Shown in pieces: positions 18,155 through 61,200 of a stretch of 64,000 nucleotides of DNA (its first letter is position 1; each line of letters begins with the position of its first letter). The DNA is taken from positions 96,001 to 160,000 of IMG/VR virus record IMGVR_UViG_3300049846_002130; one strand, written 5' to 3'. This DNA is from a virus. Below the pieces are notes generated by a model. The model did not search any database. It saw nothing but the letters and a program-made list of their open reading frames with translations, and had not been told where the DNA came from. The translations under genes and the position numbers were made by a program.

Positions 18155-18389
18155 CGTTTTTCTCCATAAAAATTCTATATATATAGCCTAATCTAAAGGC
18201 TGTTGTGAACAGAACGCGAAAAGTCGAGTCTGAAAGATGCTGAGATAGAGCTTCTAAAGCTTTGTTAATAAATAGCTGTTGGTCTTCTTTCTCTGGATTA
18301 GCCATTAGTTTATTAAACAATAAGTCTACTAATTCTTTATTCGTGTATTTAGAAGTACCTGCTGAGGTTTTAACAGACCACATCACCAA
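18096..18389 (-). CDS. hypothetical protein
   Basis: Coupled ORF. Confidence 0.6.
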   Translation of the reverse strand: MVMWSVKTSAGTSKYTNKELVDLLFNKLMANPEKEDQQLFINKALEALSQHLSDSTFRVLFTTAFRLGYIYRIFMEKNDVTFESNSAQDTEFSSVSS

Positions 18390-18829
18390 CCTAACATCTT
18401 GGGTAAGGCTGTTCGTATAAGTATACCTAGGGCAGAGAACTCTCCCCCTGAGAGCGAAACTGTTATCATACGAGAGGTTCTATCAGCATCTGTTTGTCTG
18501 ATAGACATTAACCAAGTCCCAGCATACCGCTCATCTGTACTTTCCTTAAAAGAGATGGATTTAGTTGTTCCTTGGTACTCGTGAACAATCTTTGTTGTTT
18601 CTGGGTTTTCTAGTAAATGACAAAGATCTGCAGTACCTAATGCAATTGAAATTTTACCATCTTTCCAGTCGTATAGTTTATTTTCTCCATCTGTTCCAAC
18701 TACTTTTGCTGCTTCAACAAGAATTGCTCCTGCTTTATCCATCCAATCATTGTCTTTAGCTCTGGGAGCAAGAAATGAGAATTTGGCTGCAGCCGAGCCT
18801 TTAAAAATATCAAATGAGCCTGGCTTCAT
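18383..18829 (-). CDS. Whirly-domain ssDNA-binding protein
   Basis: IFKGSAA, YDW...I.L, GEFSAL and terminal LPKMLGW align colinearly with plant Whirly motifs (IYKGKAA, YDW, AEFAVL, LPYLIGW). Confidence 0.8.
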   Translation of the reverse strand: MKPGSFDIFKGSAAAKFSFLAPRAKDNDWMDKAGAILVEAAKVVGTDGENKLYDWKDGKISIALGTADLCHLLENPETTKIVHEYQGTTKSISFKESTDERYAGTWLMSIRQTDADRTSRMITVSLSGGEFSALGILIRTALPKMLGW

Positions 18830-19134: not shown

Positions 19135-19291
19135 CTACCTGTATGTTCCAAGCTTTTAATCCTCTATAAACTTCATACATTTTTATATCAGGATTTTGTT
19201 TACATCTTTCGATGAAGCCAGGAACATTGGCTTTGATTTGAGATAAGGCTTCTTTACATTGCTTAGGGGAATATACTTCCGTCCCAAACAT
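19118..19291 (-). CDS. 57-aa hypothetical protein coupled to the Ubl gene
   Basis: ATG overlaps the Ubl stop (TAATG). Confidence 0.55.
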   Translation of the reverse strand: MFGTEVYSPKQCKEALSQIKANVPGFIERCKQNPDIKMYEVYRGLKAWNIQVESGRS

Positions 19292-19512
19292 TAGAAAGCG
19301 CCTTTGGATCCCTGGACTGCCCAAATCTCTTCTACGCCATCTACACAGGTAGTAGAGAACTCACTAGGAGCTACCTCAGTTTCGCCACCAAGAAGAATCT
19401 TATAGGTGCTATCGATCTGTAGGTGAGACACTACATCTTGAACGGTAGTGCCCTGGGTAACTTGGACTGTCTTGGTGTTCCCCGCGGGAACAAATAGTAC
19501 ATGAATTGTCAT
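19291..19512 (-). CDS. ubiquitin-like (beta-grasp, ThiS/MoaD-like) protein
   Basis: 73 aa with beta-beta-alpha-beta pattern, ending GSKGAF; directly after the E1 gene (ATGA overlap). Confidence 0.7.
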   Translation of the reverse strand: MTIHVLFVPAGNTKTVQVTQGTTVQDVVSHLQIDSTYKILLGGETEVAPSEFSTTCVDGVEEIWAVQGSKGAF

Positions 19513-20222
19513 TCTATCTCCTTTAAGTTGTATTGCTTTACAAATAGTTTACTATCTTTCATAACTGTAATTGTTCCATATGGATATTTAAAGGCACTAG
19601 TTGTTGCTTTAGCAACCAGTAGCGTACAAATATATTGTACCATATAGGCAGATATCGTAGTTACAAGAGTGGAACATAGACGCTGATTACAAGGGCCTTC
19701 TGGAATGAGGCTATCATCCATAAAGCTATCTGTCCACTGTCTATATAGTTCAGAGTTTAAAGGATTTATTACATGTATTTCTCCATGTTCAAATCCAAGG
19801 CGTGCTTCAATAGCTAACAGTATATTTGTGTTATACAAGATACCTTGTGATATATCTTTTCGACTCTTCATAGAGTCGGTAGCTATTATTAAAAAGCCCT
19901 CCACATGCGCAGCATCAGCTGCGCTAGTATAAAACCTATTATATGTTTTTACTTCTATGTCTGGATTAAATTCACGAAGCAACTCTGACAATGCTTCTAC
20001 TTTAGATTTTCCTATATGTTTGGGAAAGAACTGCTGATTTGCTAGATTATAGTCTTCAACAACATCTGCATCATAAAGAACAAACTTTTTAAATCCCATA
20101 CGGGCCGCGATCATAGCAACATTAGAGCCAACACCCCCACATCCAACAATAACTATTGGATGTGTTATCATATTTGGATGTAGCCATCCAGAATGTCTTA
20201 GAAATGATGGCTTATTCTCCAT
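19509..20222 (-). CDS. ThiF/E1-like adenylyltransferase
   Basis: GCGGVGS, YDADVVEDYNLANQ, KSKVEAL, ATDSMKSR, EARLG; candidate thioester Cys in GPCNQ. Confidence 0.9.
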   Translation of the reverse strand: MENKPSFLRHSGWLHPNMITHPIVIVGCGGVGSNVAMIAARMGFKKFVLYDADVVEDYNLANQQFFPKHIGKSKVEALSELLREFNPDIEVKTYNRFYTSAADAAHVEGFLIIATDSMKSRKDISQGILYNTNILLAIEARLGFEHGEIHVINPLNSELYRQWTDSFMDDSLIPEGPCNQRLCSTLVTTISAYMVQYICTLLVAKATTSAFKYPYGTITVMKDSKLFVKQYNLKEIE

Positions 20223-20580
20223 ACTCGATTCCTTTAAAGAGCATTAATAGTTCTTTTAATACTTTTACTTTTTCTGTAGAGCTAGATTCTTTAAATACGG
20301 AGTTATCAACAAGATATAATGTTGTAGCTAAAAGTAAAACTAATACATTTGCATCAACAGCAGTTGTAGAAAACATCTTAGTTATTTCTGATAAGCTTAC
20401 TGGCTCAAATATATCTTTTATTGGTACTTTCTTTTCTTTAGCCGAAGTAACTATACGATGAAGCCTTATTGTAATACCTAGCCATCGTAATGCTTTATTT
20501 CTATCAAGTCCCCAACCTTTCAATAACAAAAGGAATCTATCTAAATGAGTCTGGATAGATGAAGGAGTCATTGCTTCCAC
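20212..20580 (-). CDS. hypothetical protein, or -1 frameshift extension of the JAB protein
   Basis: Frame stays open upstream past 20739, overlapping the JAB stop region. Confidence 0.65.
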   Translation of the reverse strand: MEAMTPSSIQTHLDRFLLLLKGWGLDRNKALRWLGITIRLHRIVTSAKEKKVPIKDIFEPVSLSEITKMFSTTAVDANVLVLLLATTLYLVDNSVFKESSSTEKVKVLKELLMLFKGIEYGE

Positions 20581-20726
20581 TAAGGATTCACCTGCTTCGA
20601 GTAGGTAGCTAAGTTTATATGGCTCGAAATCTGGTGACTCAATAATTTTAGTAATGAATTGATTTTTATTTATAAAGTCTATCTGTTGTTTATCAAATAG
20701 ATTTATAAATTTATAGTTACTTCGGC

Positions 20727-21467
20727 CTAGTGTTTTCCCATATAGTGAAACACAAAATCAGTTTGATCAGTAGTCGTTGTAGTGTCTTTCGAGGTCGTCG
20801 TACCAGCATACACGCTCTGAGCTAAAGGGGCGGGTGGACTTCCTCCAGAAGTTACTGTAACTACAGAACTCTTTTTACTAACCAAAGAGCTGATAGCACT
20901 ATCTATTTTCTTATAGTTATAGCTGTTTTCAACAGCTATTGGAGGCTGCTCGATTATAATCCCATCTAGACTTGGATCAAAGACTCTGCAATAAATATCA
21001 CGTTTCTGATTAAAGATTAGCATTGCTTTTGGTGTAGTAGCATCTTTAATTAGAGCTGTCCAGTTTTCTTGATCAGTACCAGTAGGCTTTGCTTCCATAT
21101 TAACATGGGAATGGCACCAAGCTCCTGCCTCAGACATCAAAGTCTTAAGCTCCGTAGCAGTAAGATTACGGTCTTTCTTAAGTTGTTGCCACATCTCAGC
21201 TAAGTCTGCTGGCTCACTATCAACTGTTATTGTGGTAACAGTTTGCTTTGGTATAAAGATATCACTAATTCGATAAAATATCTTACCGTTTTGACGCTCT
21301 GAATAATCTGGTATTATTCTAGAGTACCACTGACCCTCAAACGTCTTAAGTTCATCTACAAAGTATTCGCTTAACTCTAAACATTCTTGATCAAAAACCA
21401 CATAATATTTATAAGCAGTAGTAAGAGTTGGAGTCCTTTCTGCTATTAGTTTCTTAGATAGTGTCAT
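20727..21467 (-). CDS. JAB/MPN+ metallo-isopeptidase (deubiquitinase-like)
   Basis: FEGQW...WCHSHVNMEAKPTGTD fits E...HxHx7(S/T)xxD. Confidence 0.8.
   Translation of the reverse strand: MTLSKKLIAERTPTLTTAYKYYVVFDQECLELSEYFVDELKTFEGQWYSRIIPDYSERQNGKIFYRISDIFIPKQTVTTITVDSEPADLAEMWQQLKKDRNLTATELKTLMSEAGAWCHSHVNMEAKPTGTDQENWTALIKDATTPKAMLIFNQKRDIYCRVFDPSLDGIIIEQPPIAVENSYNYKKIDSAISSLVSKKSSVVTVTSGGSPPAPLAQSVYAGTTTSKDTTTTTDQTDFVFHYMGKH
20733..20739 (-). promoter_or_regulatory. candidate -1 ribosomal frameshift heptamer G-GGA-AAA
   Basis: X-XXY-YYZ in the JAB frame (ATG GGA AAA CAC TAG); the -1 frame is open to 20212. Confidence 0.6.
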
Positions 21468-21474
21468 CTATTTT

Positions 21475-23175
21475 TTAACCTTCTTCGTAAAGTGGAAACC
21501 ATGTATACTCTGCTCCCCACTGGTCCTTACTGTTAACCGATGTAACCCATGAATCAACTGCGTAAAACAACTGACCCAAATCTCCCTCAGAGATTGCCCT
21601 TTTAATATTTGCTTCTGCTTCTCCGAAACAAATTTTAGTTGGTTTATTATAAGCTGATTTTATGCTTTTGACATCTTTTCTATTCATAGCTGTTGCAGCT
21701 GAGTGTGGATGAGCCTTGATATTTACAATATCTCCTATAGCTGGAGAGATACCTATAATAGAACTTAAATCTAGAGGATATATTTTTCCAATTAGATCTC
21801 CTCTATAAGAATAACCAATACTTATTCTGTAGGGTCCTGCTACAACTAAAGTTGTATTAGTTCCTTTTTCTGCTTTATCAACATATAGAATTGAAGGCTT
21901 TATAGTCTGCAGCTCAATATTTAAACTTTGAATTCTATCTTTTTCTTCTATAAGCTCTTTTAAAAAGATACTGTATTTATCTTCTGTATTTAAATCTAAC
22001 TCTGTATAAGAATTATACATGGTCTCTATAGTAATAGCTTGTAAGCTATAATTAGATAAAAGTCCAAGGCCCAAAAATTTACAGAATGTTTTTGTATTTT
22101 TAAGTGTATTAAGATATATTTCTGCAGCTAAGTTACTATTGGTTTTCGCTATAGTTAAACTTTCTTTAATCTTTTGATGGGTTTCTAGATAACCTTTAAG
22201 CTTTAATTCAAGATCTTTAATAAGATTTTGATTACTTTCTACATTTTTTGTAACTGAAAGATCCTCAGAAAGAAGGGTATTTAAAAGATTAGTTTTAGTT
22301 TGAAATTCTTTTGCTCTTTCTTTTAATAAGATATATTCTTGTGATGGTCTTGGAATAAAGAGAGGCTCAGCTTTAAAGTCTTTGTCTACTTGTAGCTCAG
22401 TATCAATCTTATTTGCATCTTCTGGTGTAAGTAGCTCTGCTAAAACATTCCAGTTTTTAGTTAAGCTATTAAGATTAGTTAGGTCAATAGGCTTATTGAA
22501 AGCTGCGGCCCCACTATTAAGATACTTAATCATAAACTCGTGAATAGTTTTACCATAGGTGGCATATAGCTTTGCACTACATTTTGGTAAAACCATTACA
22601 TTGTGATTAACTATAGTATTATTAGCTTTTATAAATGGTAGGTTTAAGAAGAATACTTTTGGTGTCCTTGGATTCAAGGGCAAGTCTTCAACAACCACAT
22701 CCTTTAGAGAATTGGTCACGATATCGAAAACTGTAATACTATCTTTTGGTAATTGAGTTTTTAATATATTTAATAATGAATTATTAGAAAAGATAAAGGT
22801 TGAGTAGTCTCCAACATGACCATTAACTTTAGAACACCAACTTAATGCTTCTGTATACTTTATTGAATGCCAATCTTTGTCTAGTAGACTAGTTAAGCTT
22901 TCTAACTGTTTATAACTTAAATTAGGTAAGCTTGGTATTTTAAAATTAGGTAGTGTTGGATGTATGAATAGCAATATCTTAGGAATAAGATTGCTATAGT
23001 ATAATTCTCTTCCTCCTGGAAGTGTTTGGGGCTCAAAGGTGGAGGAAAGTGAAATTTTTGATTCTACGTAAACGTTATTTTCTTTTCTTCTATACATAAC
23101 TAACTGTTTAGTAGCAGACTGTGCTTCTAAAAAGTGGTTGCCTATTAATGCGTCAGTTGATAAAACAATACTCAT
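21475..23175 (-). CDS. prokaryotic E2/UBC-like domain on a long N-terminal and coiled-coil region
   Basis: C-terminal GPYRISI...HPH...ICFG...helix...VNSKDQWG pattern; located next to JAB, E1 and Ubl genes. Confidence 0.6.
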   Translation of the reverse strand: MSIVLSTDALIGNHFLEAQSATKQLVMYRRKENNVYVESKISLSSTFEPQTLPGGRELYYSNLIPKILLFIHPTLPNFKIPSLPNLSYKQLESLTSLLDKDWHSIKYTEALSWCSKVNGHVGDYSTFIFSNNSLLNILKTQLPKDSITVFDIVTNSLKDVVVEDLPLNPRTPKVFFLNLPFIKANNTIVNHNVMVLPKCSAKLYATYGKTIHEFMIKYLNSGAAAFNKPIDLTNLNSLTKNWNVLAELLTPEDANKIDTELQVDKDFKAEPLFIPRPSQEYILLKERAKEFQTKTNLLNTLLSEDLSVTKNVESNQNLIKDLELKLKGYLETHQKIKESLTIAKTNSNLAAEIYLNTLKNTKTFCKFLGLGLLSNYSLQAITIETMYNSYTELDLNTEDKYSIFLKELIEEKDRIQSLNIELQTIKPSILYVDKAEKGTNTTLVVAGPYRISIGYSYRGDLIGKIYPLDLSSIIGISPAIGDIVNIKAHPHSAATAMNRKDVKSIKSAYNKPTKICFGEAEANIKRAISEGDLGQLFYAVDSWVTSVNSKDQWGAEYTWFPLYEEG

Positions 23176-23589: not shown

Positions 23590-23833
23590 ATATATACTCC
23601 AACACATCTGCCCCATCAGGGGCATTGATAAGCTCATCTATATCTATAGATATACCTATCGAATAGCAGATAGGACAAATATTACTTATATCGTCTCTAG
23701 TTGCTTTATAGCCACATTCTAATTCTGAACATATAAAGTACTTAGAAGCCAATTCCTGGTTTTCTGCTAGGGGTGGCTTTAGATTTTCTACTAATGACAA
23801 ATTCTTCATCCTTAGCAATATGTTTCTGTACAA
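23567..23833 (-). CDS. small zinc-ribbon protein, start uncertain
   Basis: CSELEC...CPIC. Confidence 0.55.
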   Translation of the reverse strand: MYRNILLRMKNLSLVENLKPPLAENQELASKYFICSELECGYKATRDDISNICPICYSIGISIDIDELINAPDGADVLEYIYEQMGFK

Positions 23834-25046
23834 GAAGTAGTTTTAAGTTTTTTTCTATTGTTCTTATACTGTCGTGAGTTAGTAGATTACTAATATCTAA
23901 GTCATTAGTAATAGTGTCTGAAATAGATAATTCTTTAGAAATCTTTGGAATAAGTTTGTTTTTTATAAGTTCCTTAAGCTCTTCAGTAGAATAGTTTCTG
24001 AAATGAACTTCGGTTAATCGATCTCTAAACGGCTTAGATAGTTTAGTATTGTCATTACTTGTAAATATAAAGGTAATGTTAGAAACATCAATAGGTTGAT
24101 TTATATAAGCATCTACCCAATTGGTATTCTGGCTTGGATCTAATAAACTTAAAAAGCTATTTTGTACTTCCGTGGAGCTTTTATCTATCTCGTCACATAC
24201 AAGAATTGGGTTTAAGCATTTGGTATTAATTAGTTCTTGAACTATAATTCCTGGAGAACTATTTGTATACGTTCTTAGGAAGCCAGAAACATAATTTTTA
24301 TCAGTCTTATCTCCGAGACTAAACACTCTCATTGGAGTTTCTAGTAGCTTTGCTAAATCATATGCAAACGTAGTTTTACCTACACCAGGAGGCCCACTAA
24401 ATAATAATGGTGGAAGGCCAGGCTTATCTAAGAAATAAGAGTAGCGTATGGTTAAGTACAACATAAGCTGATCTTCTTTTGATAAAGGTAAGACTTCTAT
24501 AAGATTTTTTATCTCTCCAATAGCATATTTTAAAGGTAGAGTTGTTTTAGGGATTTGGTCTAGGTACTGAATATAATTATTTAGATTATTATATTCAGTA
24601 GATCCAGGAACGAGTTTAGATAAACTGGACTTTAAAGAAAGCAACTTATTTGTTTTTTCTAAAAGAAACATAAGTGCTTCTTGAGAAGATAGCTCAAGAT
24701 ATTTTGCTCTTTCCTCTAAAGATGTCAGTATTAGTTCTGCTTTGCTATCTAATTCTTCAGTTGAAAAGCAATTAAGTGCATTAGCTTCTAGGGGCTCTGC
24801 AGAAATTGGTTCATATATATTACTTGTATAGTCTCTACAGAATATTTTAGATGTTGGTACAAATCTAATATTAGAGTCTTCAGGAAAAGCAGAGCCTATA
24901 TAACCTATAGTAAGTAGTTTGTCTTTATATGTAATTAGAACTACTGCTTCATATGGTTCTTGCGAATAGGGCTCAATATTAATTAATTTAAAACTTTGTA
25001 AGTATATAGGAATATGTACTTGTAATGGGACTATATGTATTCTCAT
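23742..25046 (-). CDS. Lon-type AAA+ ATPase without protease domain
   Basis: GPPGVGKT, RTYTNSSPG, CDEIDK, LLDPSQN, DVSNITFIFTSN; ends RKPGIGF. Confidence 0.85.
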   Translation of the reverse strand: MRIHIVPLQVHIPIYLQSFKLINIEPYSQEPYEAVVLITYKDKLLTIGYIGSAFPEDSNIRFVPTSKIFCRDYTSNIYEPISAEPLEANALNCFSTEELDSKAELILTSLEERAKYLELSSQEALMFLLEKTNKLLSLKSSLSKLVPGSTEYNNLNNYIQYLDQIPKTTLPLKYAIGEIKNLIEVLPLSKEDQLMLYLTIRYSYFLDKPGLPPLLFSGPPGVGKTTFAYDLAKLLETPMRVFSLGDKTDKNYVSGFLRTYTNSSPGIIVQELINTKCLNPILVCDEIDKSSTEVQNSFLSLLDPSQNTNWVDAYINQPIDVSNITFIFTSNDNTKLSKPFRDRLTEVHFRNYSTEELKELIKNKLIPKISKELSISDTITNDLDISNLLTHDSIRTIEKNLKLLLVQKHIAKDEEFVISRKSKATPSRKPGIGF

Positions 25047-27865: not shown

Positions 27866-27871
27866 AAGTAA

Positions 27872-27953
27872 TTGGAGAGACTAGATTTGAACTAGTGAAC
27901 CTTTTGGGAACGGTTTTACAGACCGCATGCTTTAGCCTCTTGCATACTCTCCA
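27872..27953 (-). tRNA. tRNA-Tyr(GUA), U1-A72, no encoded CCA
   Basis: Full cloverleaf; GCGGT-CTGTAAA-ACCGT; 13-nt variable arm. Confidence 0.9.
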
Positions 27954-27959
27954 AAAAAA

Positions 27960-28094
27960 CTAGTGTAGATAGATGCTCGGCTCAGCGAATAAACACCTTA
28001 AGTGATCAGACAAAAAGTTAATCATTCTTTTCAGCTTTGCTACAGGATGATCTTCCCAGCTGTAATTTCTTCTACCAACAGCTTTTTACACTAG
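27960..28094 (-). ncRNA. candidate structured RNA of about 135 nt between two tRNAs
   Basis: Ends pair (CTAGTGTA/TACACTAG); internal AGCTGT/ACAGCT and ATCAT/ATGAT stems; no ORF in the track. Confidence 0.4.
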
Positions 28095-28115
28095 AGCCCG
28101 GTACCAGGCTTTTAA

Positions 28116-28189
28116 TGGCCAAGGTAGGAGTCGAACCTACGACGCATAGCTCTTCGGGCTATCGCTCATACCAACTGAGCTACTCGGCC
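28116..28189 (-). tRNA. tRNA-Phe(GAA), C at position 33, no encoded CCA
   Basis: Full 74-nt cloverleaf; ATAGC-CCGAAGA-GCTAT. Confidence 0.9.
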
Positions 28190-42832: not shown

Positions 42833-44017
42833 ATGCAGACTACGAAACAAATTATTACTTATAATCTTTCTTCTACTTTTGAAGAGCAGGAGCTGATCAA
42901 ACTAGCTTCACCTCTTCGATTGGTTAATATATCTGCTGAAATTACTGATGGCTCTGGTACCTTTAGTATAGAGATTAGAGAACGATCTGGTACGGTAAAT
43001 CCGACATATATACCAGTTTCGTATACTGCTATATCGGAACTTAATGAATATCCCGATGTAGATATATTCCCTTTTAGTTCTAATAATAGAAATATTATTT
43101 GGATTGCTCTTAAAAAAGATTCTGGAACTATTAATACTCTTAGAGTTAATCTTCGGTTTAATTATGGTCCAGAAACTGATGTGCTAGATGTTTCTAGAGG
43201 TGGTACGGGGCAAAGTAATGTTGTTGATGCTTTAAATGCTTTATTACCCTCACAGACTGGTAACGCAGGCTTTTATTTATCAACAGATGGTATTAATGCT
43301 TTATGGGCTCCCGTAGCCGGGGGTGGGGGTCCTGGTATCTCTGATGGTGACAAAGGAGATATAACTGTTAGTGGCAGCGGATTAGTTTGGACTATAGATA
43401 ATAGTACTATTACAAACTCAAAGTTAGCTGATATGTCGGCCAGTACTTTAAAGGGCAATAATACTGGTAGTTCTGGGGCACCATTAGATTTAACCACCAC
43501 ACAAGTAAAATCAATGTTGGCTATTACTGAAAGTGATGTAGCTAATCTTACTTCTGATCTTGCAGCAAAAGCTCCTTTAGCTAGTCCGACATTTACAGGA
43601 ACAGTTGTTTTACCAACAAATACATCTATTGGTAGTGTAAGCTCTACAGAAATTAGCTATATAGATGGTGTAACTAGCAGTATTCAAACACAACTAGATA
43701 GTAAATCTAGTATAGGTCATACACATGTTGTTGCAAACATTACTGATTATACTAGTAGTACAAACTCATTAATTTCTACAGCTATAACAGCACATGCAGG
43801 AGCAGCCGATCCACATACTGGATATCAACTAGAATCTGAAAAAAATGCTACTAGTGGTTATGCTGGACTTGATAGTTCAACCTTAGTTCCAGTAGCCTTA
43901 TTGGGTACCGGAACAGCTAATTCGTCTAAGTTTTTACGTGGTGATCGTGTTTGGGCCACGCCAGCAGGTGGTGGTGGCGGAACAATAAATTCATATTTCC
44001 CCTCAGGCTGGGGATAG
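42833..44017 (+). CDS. tail-fibre-like structural protein
   Basis: Fibre-type modules LPSQTGNAGFYLSTDG, DGDKGDITVS, KAPLASPTFTG, FLRGD..W. Confidence 0.65.
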   Translation: MQTTKQIITYNLSSTFEEQELIKLASPLRLVNISAEITDGSGTFSIEIRERSGTVNPTYIPVSYTAISELNEYPDVDIFPFSSNNRNIIWIALKKDSGTINTLRVNLRFNYGPETDVLDVSRGGTGQSNVVDALNALLPSQTGNAGFYLSTDGINALWAPVAGGGGPGISDGDKGDITVSGSGLVWTIDNSTITNSKLADMSASTLKGNNTGSSGAPLDLTTTQVKSMLAITESDVANLTSDLAAKAPLASPTFTGTVVLPTNTSIGSVSSTEISYIDGVTSSIQTQLDSKSSIGHTHVVANITDYTSSTNSLISTAITAHAGAADPHTGYQLESEKNATSGYAGLDSSTLVPVALLGTGTANSSKFLRGDRVWATPAGGGGGTINSYFPSGWG

Positions 44018-58156: not shown

Positions 58157-58173
58157 TATTTCTCCAATAAAAG

Positions 58174-58263
58174 CGGAAGGCTGAGGACTCGAACCCCATA
58201 CGGCTTTACCCGTACCCAAGCTTTCAAGGCTTGTCGCCGCCCATCGCAGCTGCTTAACCTTCC
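58174..58263 (-). tRNA. tRNA-Ser(UGA), long D arm, can fold 8/4
   Basis: GGAAGGT(T)/(A)GCCTTCC acceptor; CAAGC-CTTGAAA-GCTTG; long V arm; G73. Confidence 0.85.
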
Positions 58264-58268
58264 AATAT

Positions 58269-58354
58269 TAGACCTAATAGGACTCGAACCCCCGGAAGTT
58301 ATTAACTTCAGTGCTTTTCAAGAGCACCATCTTAAACCACTTGATCACAATCCC
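58269..58354 (-). pseudogene. tRNA-Ser(UGA)-like element with mismatched acceptor
   Basis: Intact D, anticodon (GTGCT-CTTGAAA-AGCAC) and V arms; acceptor GGGATTG versus TAGGTCT. Confidence 0.75.
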
Positions 58355-58359
58355 AGTTA

Positions 58360-58737
58360 TTAACAAATATTATCGGGTAATGAAATTATATTAGCATGCA
58401 ATTTCATGTGACAGTTTGCGCATAAGCAAATACACTTAGCCAATTCAGCTTTAAGCTTTAAAGCTGAATAGCTTCCCTTGGCATTACCGATATTAAAATC
58501 TTTTTCGTTTGGATCTAGATGATGAGCAACTAAACAAACGAATTCTTTTTCTGGACAGAGATTGCATCCGTTGGACTTAAAGTCATTAATTATAAGTTTG
58601 TTTCGAATAGCATATTTTTCTCTATTTTTGTTATTACGAATTTTCATTTTTTGATTATATATAGAATCAGTATGATATCTATTATTATAGTATTCTCTAT
58701 TATATTCTTTCCGCTTTTCTTTATCTTTACTAGGCAT
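58360..58737 (-). CDS. free-standing HNH endonuclease
   Basis: CNLC...AHHLDP...KCICLCANCHMKLH. Confidence 0.85.
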   Translation of the reverse strand: MPSKDKEKRKEYNREYYNNRYHTDSIYNQKMKIRNNKNREKYAIRNKLIINDFKSNGCNLCPEKEFVCLVAHHLDPNEKDFNIGNAKGSYSALKLKAELAKCICLCANCHMKLHANIISLPDNIC

Positions 58738-58754
58738 AAAAACTCCTAGTAAAG

Positions 58755-58783
58755 ATTGTATAGAAGACTTAATTTTAAGTCAA
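58755..58783 (-). promoter_or_regulatory. sigma70-type promoter for the HNH gene, with an internal palindrome
   Basis: TTGACT-17 bp-TACAAT; gacttaa-tt-ttaagtc at 58766-58781. Confidence 0.65.
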
Positions 58784-58806
58784 GAATATCAAACTATAAG
58801 TCTAAG

Positions 58807-58880
58807 TGAGAGAGCAGGGATTTGAACCTTGGACCACTTGCTTAACAGGCACAATGCTCTACCACCTGAGCTATAGGTCT
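58807..58880 (-). pseudogene. tRNA-Asn(GUU)-like element with mismatched acceptor
   Basis: Good D arm, CTGTTAA loop and T loop; acceptor AGACCTA versus CTCTCTC. Confidence 0.75.
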
Positions 58881-58883
58881 ATG

Positions 58884-58957
58884 CGGGCCCTCCTGGACTT
58901 GAACCAGGGTATCGCAGCTTAACAGGCTGCTGCCTTTACCGACTTGGCGAAGGGCCC
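58884..58957 (-). tRNA. tRNA-Asn(GUU), no encoded CCA
   Basis: Full 74-nt cloverleaf; GCAGC-CTGTTAA-GCTGC; G73. Confidence 0.92.
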
Positions 58958-61077
58958 TCTAGTTTAGTACTAAACTTTAATTTTTCTTGATCTCTAGTTA
59001 CATAGATTATGTCATTGGCTACATATATACCACCTATGACTTCATTAGATAGTGGATCAAGTAAGTAGTTATTAATTGCTCGCTTTAGTGGACGTCCACC
59101 AAAAGCAGGGTCATAACCTTTATCAACAAGTAGTTCCTTAGCTTCAGGAGTTATTATTAGCTTAAGTTCTTTATCTGCTAATTGTTTTTGTACTTTATGT
59201 AAGTGAATATCTAGTATCTTACTTATATCGGATTTAGTAAGTGGATCAAATATTACTTTACTATCGATTCTATTTAGAATCTCAGGCTTAATAGCTTTAA
59301 GTAATTCAGCTTCAACAGCAGCTGTAGCTTTTTCTCTGTTACCTGCAGCTTCAAATATTTTTACAGAGCCAATATTTGAAGTCATGATGATAACAGTATT
59401 CTTAAAGTCTACGCTCCGGCCACGACTATCAGTTAGCCTGCCTTCATCTAATAGTTGTAAGAAAACATTAAAGACATCTGGGTGCGCCTTCTCTATTTCA
59501 TCAAATAGAACCACAGAGTATGGTCTACGCAATACTGCCTCAGTTAGCTGGCCACCTTCATCATGACCAGCATAACCTGGAGGTGAACCTAGTAATCTAC
59601 TAACAGTATGCTTTTCCATATACTCTGACATATCGATACGAACAATGGCGTTCTCATCATCAAATAAGAACTCAGCCAAAGCCTTTGCTAGCTCAGTCTT
59701 GCCAACACCAGTCGGTCCTAAAAACAAGAAACTACCTGTCGGCCGGTTAGCATCTTGAAGGCCAGCACGGGCTCGTCGGACAGCCTTAGATAAGGCCACA
59801 ATGGCTTCGTGTTGCCCAATAACTCGTTTATGGAGATTATCTTCCATATGCAAAAGCTTCTGAGATTCGCTTTGCTTTAGTTTGTTAACCTTGATGCCTG
59901 TCCACTGACCAATAACCTTTGCTATGTCGTCATAGGAAAGAGCATCCGAAAGAAGTGGTTTCTCACCTTGAACATTAGCTAGATTATTGTTTAGATTCAA
60001 TAATGTTTGTTCAGCTTCAATCAGAGTACTATATCTAATCTTGCTGGCTTGTTCATAATCACCATTAGTTTCAGACTCTTCGGCAATAAGAAAAAGTTCT
60101 TCTATGAGTTCTTTTTGAGAAGCAATCTCATCCAAGATAGTTCTCTCTTGAGACCACTGAAGCTTTAGGTTTGCAAGATCATCTTCTTTTGTTCTAAGCA
60201 AGGCTTTAAGCTTATTGTAAGCAGTTACATTACGATCACTTCTTATAGCTACTTCATTAACCCTAAGAGATATAACTTCTCTTTCTAGTAAATCAATCTC
60301 ATGAGGCTTACTTTCAGATGTAGTCTTTAATAAGCTACAAGCTTCATCAAGTAAGTCAATAGCTTTATCTGGAAGATTTCGTTCAGTTAAGTACCTGTTG
60401 CTTAAAGTAGCTGCAGCTATTAAAGCAGAATCATTAATCTGAATACCATGATAGGTTTCGAACTTCTCTTTTAGGCCTCGTAGGATTTGCAGGGTTACAT
60501 CAACACTTGGAGCATTAATAAATACTGCCTGGAATCTACGATCTAATGTTTTATTCTTTTCGAAGGTCTTCTTATATTCATCAATACTAGTTGTACCAAT
60601 CACCCTAAGGTTGCTTCTAGATAGACTATCCTCAAGCATACTGCTTGCATCAACTCCACCCTCAGACTTACCAGCACCAACAATATTATGAATATTATCT
60701 AGAAAAAGAATTAAGTCATCGCTCCTAGATTCTAATTCTCTAAGAAGTTTAAGTAGTCGTTCTTCGAATTCACCTCTATAACTAGCCCCAGCTAGAAGAC
60801 TAGCTATATCTAGGGATAGAATTTTTTTATTCTTTAGATATTCTGGGACATCCTCAACTACAATTCTTTGAGCAAGGCCATAAACTATAGTGGTCTTACC
60901 TACACCAGAAGCTCCTATTAAAATAGGATTATTCTTAGATCTACGAGTAAGAATCTGAATAACTCTTCGAATCTCTTCATCTCTACCAATTGTGGGATCA
61001 AGTAAATCTTCTTCAGCTAAAGCTGTAATATTCTTACAGTAGCGAGCAACAATATCTTCCTTAGCTGACTTGGTCAT
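58936..61077 (-). CDS. clpB: ClpB-like disaggregase lacking the N-terminal domain
   Basis: Two NBDs (GASGVGKT, GPTGVGKT) with a middle coiled coil. ATG at 61077 has GGAG SD; the track start reads through a tRNA. Confidence 0.93.
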   Translation of the reverse strand: MTKSAKEDIVARYCKNITALAEEDLLDPTIGRDEEIRRVIQILTRRSKNNPILIGASGVGKTTIVYGLAQRIVVEDVPEYLKNKKILSLDIASLLAGASYRGEFEERLLKLLRELESRSDDLILFLDNIHNIVGAGKSEGGVDASSMLEDSLSRSNLRVIGTTSIDEYKKTFEKNKTLDRRFQAVFINAPSVDVTLQILRGLKEKFETYHGIQINDSALIAAATLSNRYLTERNLPDKAIDLLDEACSLLKTTSESKPHEIDLLEREVISLRVNEVAIRSDRNVTAYNKLKALLRTKEDDLANLKLQWSQERTILDEIASQKELIEELFLIAEESETNGDYEQASKIRYSTLIEAEQTLLNLNNNLANVQGEKPLLSDALSYDDIAKVIGQWTGIKVNKLKQSESQKLLHMEDNLHKRVIGQHEAIVALSKAVRRARAGLQDANRPTGSFLFLGPTGVGKTELAKALAEFLFDDENAIVRIDMSEYMEKHTVSRLLGSPPGYAGHDEGGQLTEAVLRRPYSVVLFDEIEKAHPDVFNVFLQLLDEGRLTDSRGRSVDFKNTVIIMTSNIGSVKIFEAAGNREKATAAVEAELLKAIKPEILNRIDSKVIFDPLTKSDISKILDIHLHKVQKQLADKELKLIITPEAKELLVDKGYDPAFGGRPLKRAINNYLLDPLSNEVIGGIYVANDIIYVTRDQEKLKFSTKLEGPSPSR

Positions 61078-61109
61078 ATGCACTCCAATCAATATAAGCT
61101 TATTATAAA

Positions 61110-61193
61110 CGGAGCCGGCAGGATTCGAACCTACGATAGTGTTACTATGGTTGTTTAGCAAACAACTGGTTTAAGCCACTCACCCACAGCTCC
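61110..61193 (-). tRNA. tRNA-Ser(GCU), no encoded CCA
   Basis: Full 84-nt cloverleaf; GTTGT-TTGCTAA-ACAAC; long V arm. Confidence 0.92.
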
Positions 61194-61200
61194 AATGAGA

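Follow-up and report, generated by a model that had tools for sequence, protein, structure and literature searches.

Genes G and GT of bacteriophage lambda are expressed by a −1 shift at a heptamer of the form GGGAAAx (G_GGA_AAG), which lies near the end of the upstream open reading frame (ORF) and yields, in a fixed ratio, a short product and one with a C-terminal extension. This frameshift works without a strong or defined downstream structure, and in the G/GT analogues of other tailed phages the arrangement has been conserved in position despite divergence in sequence. The present study concerns a similar junction in another kind of gene. It lies in a stretch of 64,000 nucleotides (the window), i.e., bases 96001–160000 of IMG/VR record IMGVR_UViG_3300049846_002130, a viral sequence of 183.5 kb that has direct terminal repeats and comes from freshwater sediment. 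Here, a gene for a JAB/MPN+ peptidase carries the heptamer G_GGA_AAA close to its end. From comparison with related phages, we consider it probable, with good confidence, that −1 ribosomal slippage at this heptamer makes a short and a long form of JAB. Two differences from lambda are evident: the last base of the heptamer is A, not G, and the protein is no tail chaperone but the peptidase of a ubiquitin-like operon.

The dnaX gene, which encodes tau and gamma, also resembles the situation here, in that there are two isoforms which share an N-terminal enzyme module and differ in a C-terminal interaction domain, and in that heptamer and poly-A solutions are found in different lineages: Escherichia coli has a frameshift at A_AAA_AAG with a Shine–Dalgarno-like sequence and a hairpin as stimulators, and Thermus has slippage on a run of nine A (A9). 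Four relatives of the JAB locus that have A9 runs (L007, L011, L018 and L020) resemble Thermus dnaX. However, the shift truncates the product in dnaX but would extend it in the window, and no conserved stimulator was found in the clade to which the window belongs. In orfA–orfAB of IS3 and IS911, a −1 shift at a heptamer fuses overlapping ORFs, of which the downstream one lacks an efficient start of its own, as here; the proteins, however, are unrelated, and there is no mobile element at the JAB locus.

The peptidase itself shares the MPN fold and the metal-binding motif with Cap3 of CBASS, BilC of Bil, PfJAMM1, Rpn11 and BRCC36, and, as in bacterial systems of ubiquitin-like proteins (Ubl), an E1 gene and a small gene of Ubl size lie nearby. 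Rpn11 and BRCC36 carry C-terminal helical extensions that are used for assembly. In contrast to JABs of the Cap3/BilC type, the protein described here is encoded by a phage and not in a host defence island, combines an orphan helical domain with a linker that is long and disordered, and is too divergent for the Pfam JAB family.

A literature search of incomplete coverage found no report of recoding in genes for JAB, Cap3 or BilC, or in phage Ubl operons. Among the frameshift genes annotated by SEA-PHAGES, 2397 of 2476 belong to tail chaperones and the remaining 79 to hypothetical proteins (PMC10885494), which places the JAB site outside the usual class. The mechanism, a canonical −1 frameshift, would thus be a known one, and the gene family appears to be new for it. 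Identity as a tail assembly chaperone was considered for this gene and rejected, as there is no match to a tail chaperone in PHROG and there are no adjacent tail genes; the neighbours of JAB are instead a gene for 566 amino acids, E1, a gene of Ubl size, a Whirly gene and an AAA+ gene.

The junction between JAB and the −1 reading frame

All genes of the JAB locus are on the minus strand. The features at the junction are as follows.

20727..21467, minus strand: gene of the JAB/MPN+ peptidase, zero frame, 246-amino-acid short isoform (motif and fold match)
20754..20888, minus strand: Thr/Ser-rich linker, JAB residues ~194–238, probably disordered (low confidence of the model, low complexity)
20733..20739, minus strand: slippery heptamer G_GGA_AAA, the proposed −1 frameshift site (read in the sequence)
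20727..20729, minus strand: zero-frame stop TAG, one codon past the heptamer (read in the sequence)
20212..20739, minus strand: X, the whole −1-frame ORF, 175 sense codons and TAA (translation)
20581..20739, minus strand: 53 codons of the −1 frame without a canonical start, between annotated genes (open only in the −1 frame)
20212..20580, minus strand: ORF as listed, 122 amino acids from GTG (ORF list)
20578..20593, minus strand: alternative start, GTG 20578–20580 with AGGTG 20589–20593, which would give a 122-amino-acid product without the N-terminal part of the domain
20668..20710, minus strand: AU-rich hairpin, 22 nucleotides downstream of the heptamer (RNA fold, window only)

The 3′ end of the JAB ORF reads ...TTT CAC TAT ATG GGA AAA CAC TAG, with G_GGA_AAA at 20739–20733 in the X_XXY_YYZ phase of the JAB zero frame and TAG at 20729–20727, and only one codon of the zero frame is left after the heptamer. 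Read in the −1 frame from the heptamer, the sequence is GGG AAA ACA CTA GGC CGA... (GKTLGRSNYKFINLF...), and this frame meets its first stop, TAA at 20214–20212, after 175 codons; upstream of the heptamer it is open for six codons only. The first ATG, GTG or TTG in the −1 frame is the GTG at 20580–20578, which is codon 53 from the heptamer and is preceded by AGGTG at 20593–20589. The predicted slip product comprises 245 + 173 = 418 amino acids, with the junction ...FHYMGK/TLGR..., and the stop of the −1 ORF overlaps the ATG of the E1 gene (20222–20220) by 11 nucleotides. An earlier note, made from the letters of the window alone, had described the in-phase heptamer in the ending ATG GGA AAA CAC TAG, a −1 frame running stop-free through 53 unannotated codons into the ORF 20212..20580, products of 246 and about 418 amino acids, and a long product ending on the E1 start; each of these statements was borne out when the sequence was read. 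The same note had raised the possibility of a one-base error in the assembly. Contigs from a second study cover 20599–21500 and 20673–20920 with 0 differences and 0 gaps relative to the window; as the junction is identical in independent assemblies, an indel error is excluded.

In-frame heptamers of the type XXXYYYZ are found 190 times in 48,118 codons of this genome (ORFs of at least 150 amino acids), i.e., about 0.004 per codon, and the chance of one falling inside the nine-codon overlap is about 3.5%. A single heptamer is on its own only suggestive; but the heptamer is conserved, and relatives repeatedly have slippery sites at this junction, which together goes far beyond chance. The other heptamers of the genome that are followed by long −1 extensions were rejected, being antisense noise or else normal gene overlaps in which the second gene has a start of its own, and the heptamer at genome positions 43699–43705 was inspected and dismissed.

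According to the proposed mechanism, most ribosomes would stop at the TAG at 20727–20729 and release the 246-amino-acid protein, consisting of the JAB domain and the linker. A fraction would slip back by one base with tRNA-Gly and tRNA-Lys on GGA AAA (20738–20733), the P-site tRNA-Gly re-pairing from GGA to GGG and the A-site tRNA-Lys from AAA to AAA; the slipped ribosomes would then read the −1 frame and add the 173-residue helical X, giving the 418-amino-acid JAB-X. The frameshift would keep free JAB and JAB-X at a fixed ratio. The long form would correspond, by position, to the single-ORF arrangement of most related phages, and we propose, as a working idea, that X may serve in targeting or assembly and tether the peptidase to a partner or a substrate of the E1/Ubl pathway. 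The sequences themselves show the site and its conservation, the coding constraint on the −1 extension, the lack of a conserved start for it, the relatives with one frame and the recurrent −1 slippery junctions; that slippage occurs, how efficient it would be and what purpose it would serve, we infer. The window has six tRNA genes on the minus strand, in 27871–28189 and 58173–61194 (Tyr-GTA, Phe-GAA, two Ser-TGA, Asn-GTT and Ser-GCT); none of these decodes GGA or AAA, so slippage would use the tRNA-Gly and tRNA-Lys of the host.

Conservation of the junction in related phages

The JAB of the window has three homologues in its clade, which are 60, 56 and 49% identical to it, have 243–252 amino acids and all end in FHYxGK[HR]. 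The DNA of the junction was read in three loci: the window, L003 and L002 (JAB 56% and 49% identical to the window, respectively). The junction is ...CAT TAC TCG GGA AAA CAC TAG in L003 and ...CAC TAT TTG GGA AAA CGT TAA in L002. Thus, GGGAAAAC is invariant in all three loci and the codon that precedes it varies (ATG, TCG, TTG). In each of the three, the stop follows one codon after the heptamer, and downstream of the heptamer only the −1 frame is open, the other two frames holding several stops.

The −1 translations of the window, L003 and L002 align from the first residue: GKTLGRSNYKFINLF, GKTLGRGSYKFIDLF and GKTLSRASYDLLDFF, respectively, with the pattern GKTL[GS]R..Y...F. The changes within the −1 ORF are synonymous or conservative (e.g. 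CGA/CGG, AAA/AAG, CTA/TTA), and the start of the −1 protein is as conserved as the remainder of the X domain. The identity of X across the lineages falls to 43% and 24%, yet about 175 codons have stayed open in AT-rich DNA. The first canonical start in the −1 frame is at codon 53 in the window, 122 in L003 and 32 in L002, which are non-homologous positions, and for this reason gene callers have made unrelated fragments of X (103, 54 and 139 amino acids, beginning at positions 74, 123 and 33 of the profile); an independent start at codon 122 would give 54 amino acids of a 175-amino-acid domain. As the starts are not conserved and X is modelled as one compact domain, the comparison indicates that X has no conserved independent start and that the DNA lying between the annotated genes codes for protein.

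In the closest homologue of JAB, P0004 (ENA ERZ27254861; 60% identical, ending FHYTGKH), there are 610 nucleotides past the JAB stop without a called gene, as would be expected if a −1 ORF lacking a start were present there too. No further members of the clade were found by a search of IMG/VR and of metagenome contigs of the JGI with a JAB profile, or with a degenerate pattern of 29 nucleotides for the junction, and blastn against GenBank phages gave no match.

Homologues of E1 led to large contigs, and an E1 profile then recovered 80 IMG/VR loci. The relatives share a gene order of a 576–715-amino-acid gene, JAB, E1 and a gene of Ubl size, followed further on by Whirly and SpoVG. The close relatives are 28 distinct loci with a score above 100 for the hidden Markov model (HMM) of JAB. 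In 22 of these 28, a single ORF of 351–506 amino acids from stop to stop contains the JAB domain, a low-complexity linker and a C-terminal extension; this ORF ends at or over the E1 start, and the genes called in it have 363–470 amino acids (e.g. P0027, 470 amino acids). Both kinds of homologue envisaged in the earlier note therefore exist, those in which JAB is fused to its extension in one frame and those, L003 and L002, that keep the heptamer, the spacing to the stop and the open −1 frame.

The split loci are six from the survey and L002, i.e., seven. X is in the −1 frame in all seven, and all have an in-frame slippery heptamer inside the stretch of 10–91 nucleotides that is open in both frames; the probability of finding one there by chance is 1.4–19% per overlap. 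The junction is GGGAAAA in the window and L003, and it has A9 runs in L011 (cttAAAAAAAAAtag) and L020 (tctAAAAAAAAAtag), both with overlaps of only 10 nucleotides, and in L018 (gctAAAAAAAAAcag) and L007 (tgcAAAAAAAAAggg). On a tree of JAB and E1, five changes are required to explain the split state, and well-supported branches force at least three of these. This implies that the junction was remade repeatedly, each time in a form compatible with slippage.

In the 330 nucleotides after the JAB domain, runs of at least eight A are enriched 13.5-fold (13 in 8.9 kb vs 22 in 205 kb; binomial p 7e-10), a figure that is inflated by the kinship of the loci and by the Lys-rich linker. The enrichment fits selection for two isoforms across the group. 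In the one-frame genes of L004, L008, L012, L014, L017, L021, L022 and L030, tracts of A8–A10 which encode KKK are present in the same linker; slippage at these would truncate the protein to a short JAB, which hints that both isoforms are made there too, with the default reversed. A wider view, which we hold tentatively and find rather more doubtful than convincing, is that having a short and a long JAB is a selected property of the whole group of phage Ubl operons and is achieved by different recoding devices: the heptamer in the clade of the window, A9 tracts that extend the protein in at least two other lineages, and A8–A10 tracts that truncate it in one-frame genes. More distant viral contigs (L037–L091, e.g. 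L039, L044, L056 and L079) have a JAB of about 240–250 amino acids, a gap of 70–250 nucleotides and then E1, without a domain of the size of X, which confines the C-terminal module to one subgroup; L033 has a JAB-containing ORF of 634 amino acids instead.

Alternative explanations for the split gene

Several points weigh against slippage at the heptamer. The case is a purely comparative one, and the clade comprises three readable loci only, which are of common ancestry. The fold of the 100 nucleotides past the heptamer is stable in the window (minimum free energy −13.5 kcal/mol, z −3.55), with z values of +0.49 in L003 and +0.21 in L002, and across the three loci no conserved downstream hairpin or pseudoknot was found (consensus fold −4.3 kcal/mol). 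This agrees with the earlier note, which had seen no clear downstream stimulator; the hairpin of the window is not conserved in L003 or L002. Nor was a Shine–Dalgarno-like stimulator seen upstream of the heptamer, and without a conserved stimulator the efficiency of the frameshift could be low. In E. coli, heptamers ending in AAG shift better than those ending in AAA. The C-terminal extensions of the one-frame relatives appear equivalent to X by position and architecture only: comparison of the two by hhalign and BLASTP was negative, with probabilities of at most 4%. Finally, the GTG of the window, with its plausible AGGTG, could yield some independent, truncated X.

This last point leads to the explanation that survives best after slippage, though we judge it improbable: that X is a separate protein with its own start, at the GTG at 20580 or at a non-canonical start further upstream, and that the heptamer is incidental. 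The GTG has AGGTG 8 nucleotides upstream; weak starts appear to be tolerated, since only 56% of the long ORFs of this genome have a motif of the Shine–Dalgarno type; and L007 has ATG codons in the X frame inside the overlap. Yet a start at this place is not conserved, the first being codon 122 for L003 and 32 for L002, and neither are near-cognate codons (ATA in two of the loci, TTA in the third). Moreover, the protein sequence of the 53 codons upstream of the GTG is conserved and just one frame is open there, and a separate start would leave the −1 frame with its slippery site, as well as the one-frame relatives, unexplained. The GTG with AGGTG, which the earlier note had offered as the alternative, is thus present in the window, but has no equivalent in L003 or L002; in this phage alone, AGGTG–GTG (20593–20578) may add some truncated free X to the products of frameshifting.

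Slippage could also be a property of the RNA polymerase, stuttering by one added base such that a subset of mRNAs encodes an in-frame fusion; for the clade of the window this seems very unlikely. Runs of A9 length support transcriptional slippage, as in Thermus dnaX, and four relatives have A9 exactly at the junction, in addition to the 13.5-fold enrichment of long A runs in the linker zone, which extends to one-frame loci. However, the clade of the window has G3A4 only and the genome of the window is without any A9 or T9 run, and the exact X_XXY_YYZ phase has been kept in all three loci. As G3A4 is too short for efficient slippage by the polymerase and the genome has no A9 run, ribosomal slippage is taken to apply to this clade. 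For the A9 lineages (L007, L011, L018 and L020), transcriptional and ribosomal slippage are equally possible.

The chance is slimmer still for reinitiation: after termination at the end of JAB, ribosomes would restart close by in the −1 frame, with no normal start codon, and make free full-length X. One codon separates the JAB stop from the point where the conserved −1 protein begins, and in L011 and L020 an ATA overlaps the TAG; in the clade of the window, however, the codons that overlap the stop are CTA, CTA and TTA, which are not known initiators, and reinitiation would give the conserved heptamer no role and would not account for the one-frame relatives. That the split is damage is scarcely credible. 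In this view a former one-frame JAB-X gene would have been broken recently by a frameshift mutation, or only in the assembly, and X would be decaying. One-frame genes are indeed the commonest state among relatives, but the junction is identical in independent assemblies, and the split is common to three diverged lineages in which X is open and folds with high confidence.

The peptidase, the X domain and their neighbours

The short isoform has the metal-binding motif H119-S-H121-x7-T-x2-D132, which is invariant in four homologues (the Ser position being Thr or Ser), and the invariant residues E28 and E31 in the alignment of JAB are candidates for the upstream Glu. The AlphaFold2 model is of moderate quality, with a predicted local distance difference test (pLDDT) of 70–83 in the core and a mean of 58. 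With Foldseek, the core matched PfJAMM1–SAMP2 (E 1.5e-6), as well as Rpn11, BRCC36 and Cap3 (range E 1.5e-6 to 1e-4), with a TM score by target of 0.62 for Cap3. The match to JAB in PADLOC was weak (E 0.0026), and there was no match for the protein in Pfam, NCBIfam or the sequences of the PDB. With both the metal-binding motif and, as modelled, the MPN fold, the 246-amino-acid protein can be assigned to the JAB/MPN+ (JAMM) peptidases.

Residues 194–238 of JAB have pLDDT below 50 and are of low complexity and rich in Thr and Ser. After these ~45 disordered residues, directly 5′ of the slip site, there is a conserved aromatic motif, [DE][FY][VI]FHYxGK (20742–20771, residues 233–242), and one-frame relatives have aromatic patches in the same region of the linker (e.g. 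LDW, HYHWDW). The motif may be a docking motif that both isoforms keep.

The X domain was modelled by AlphaFold2 with pLDDT 88.6 and a predicted TM score of 0.86, residues 11–175 forming one compact all-helical domain, of which the “unannotated” N-terminal part of 53 codons is modelled as helices with pLDDT 89–95. The C-terminal part of the 418-amino-acid long isoform consists of 173 residues of X. No usable match to the fold was found with Foldseek against the PDB (best E 0.27), VIA-align wide (best Z 3.7), the ESM Atlas by shape (TM at most 0.41 by query) or BFVD (best E 0.44), and a feature search of the ESM Atlas gave no lead for X or for the C-terminus of P0027. X matches no Pfam or PHROG family, a word-index search found only the protein of the window itself, and an HMM search of 1.84 billion representative proteins found only the truncated gene calls of the family.

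In most relatives the end of X and the start of E1 are tightly joined, and for this reason binding of X to E1 was tried by complex prediction; with residues 8–175 of X, this gave no verdict either way. The stop of X and the start of E1 overlap or abut in most relatives, with gaps of about −55 to +23 nucleotides (20212–20222 in the window, 1640–1650 in L003). This overlap suggests translational coupling, and in split phages part of the translation of E1 could depend on frameshifted ribosomes.

The genes that surround JAB and X are as follows.

21475..23175, minus strand: gene for 566 amino acids, upstream in the operon (ORF)
19509..20222, minus strand: ThiF/E1 adenylyltransferase gene (Pfam ThiF, E 5e-28; PADLOC CBASS E1-E2, E 1.4e-17)
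19291..19512, minus strand: gene for 73 amino acids, a putative Ubl, which overlaps the E1 stop by 4 nucleotides

The 566-amino-acid gene (21475–23175) has no match in Pfam, PADLOC or NCBIfam; the relatives carry a 576–715-amino-acid gene in its place. The 73-amino-acid gene (19291–19512) has no family match, and a gene for 71–78 amino acids follows E1 in every relative. Further along, a 148-amino-acid protein (18383–18829, minus strand) aligns from end to end with Pfam Whirly (E 7.6e-6, above the cut-off); the Whirly gene is syntenic in all related phages, where it is followed by a gene of the SpoVG family. A 434-amino-acid AAA+ ATPase (23742–25046, minus strand; Pfam AAA, E 6e-14; best PHROG 15585) is encoded two genes upstream of the 566-amino-acid gene, and L012 also has an AAA gene upstream.

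The comparison of these loci gives good support for a frameshift in an enzyme of a phage-encoded ubiquitin-like pathway, almost all annotated frameshifts of phages being those of tail chaperones (PMC10885494). At this domain boundary, some lineages appear to use a heptamer, some an A9 tract and others a gene in one frame. The annotation of the locus is corrected accordingly, in that 53 “non-coding” codons and the truncated downstream ORFs that were called in each relative would be parts of one 418-amino-acid protein, and gene callers systematically break the JAB-X family. In addition, an orphan helical domain is defined on an enzyme that resembles deubiquitinases, and mutants of the heptamer would be a simple handle on the roles of free and tethered JAB in a phage Ubl system. 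If the wider view of two isoforms as a selected property of the group is true, the ratio of the isoforms would set how much of the peptidase is tethered via X and how much is free, and would tune maturation of the Ubl vs its removal from targets during infection.

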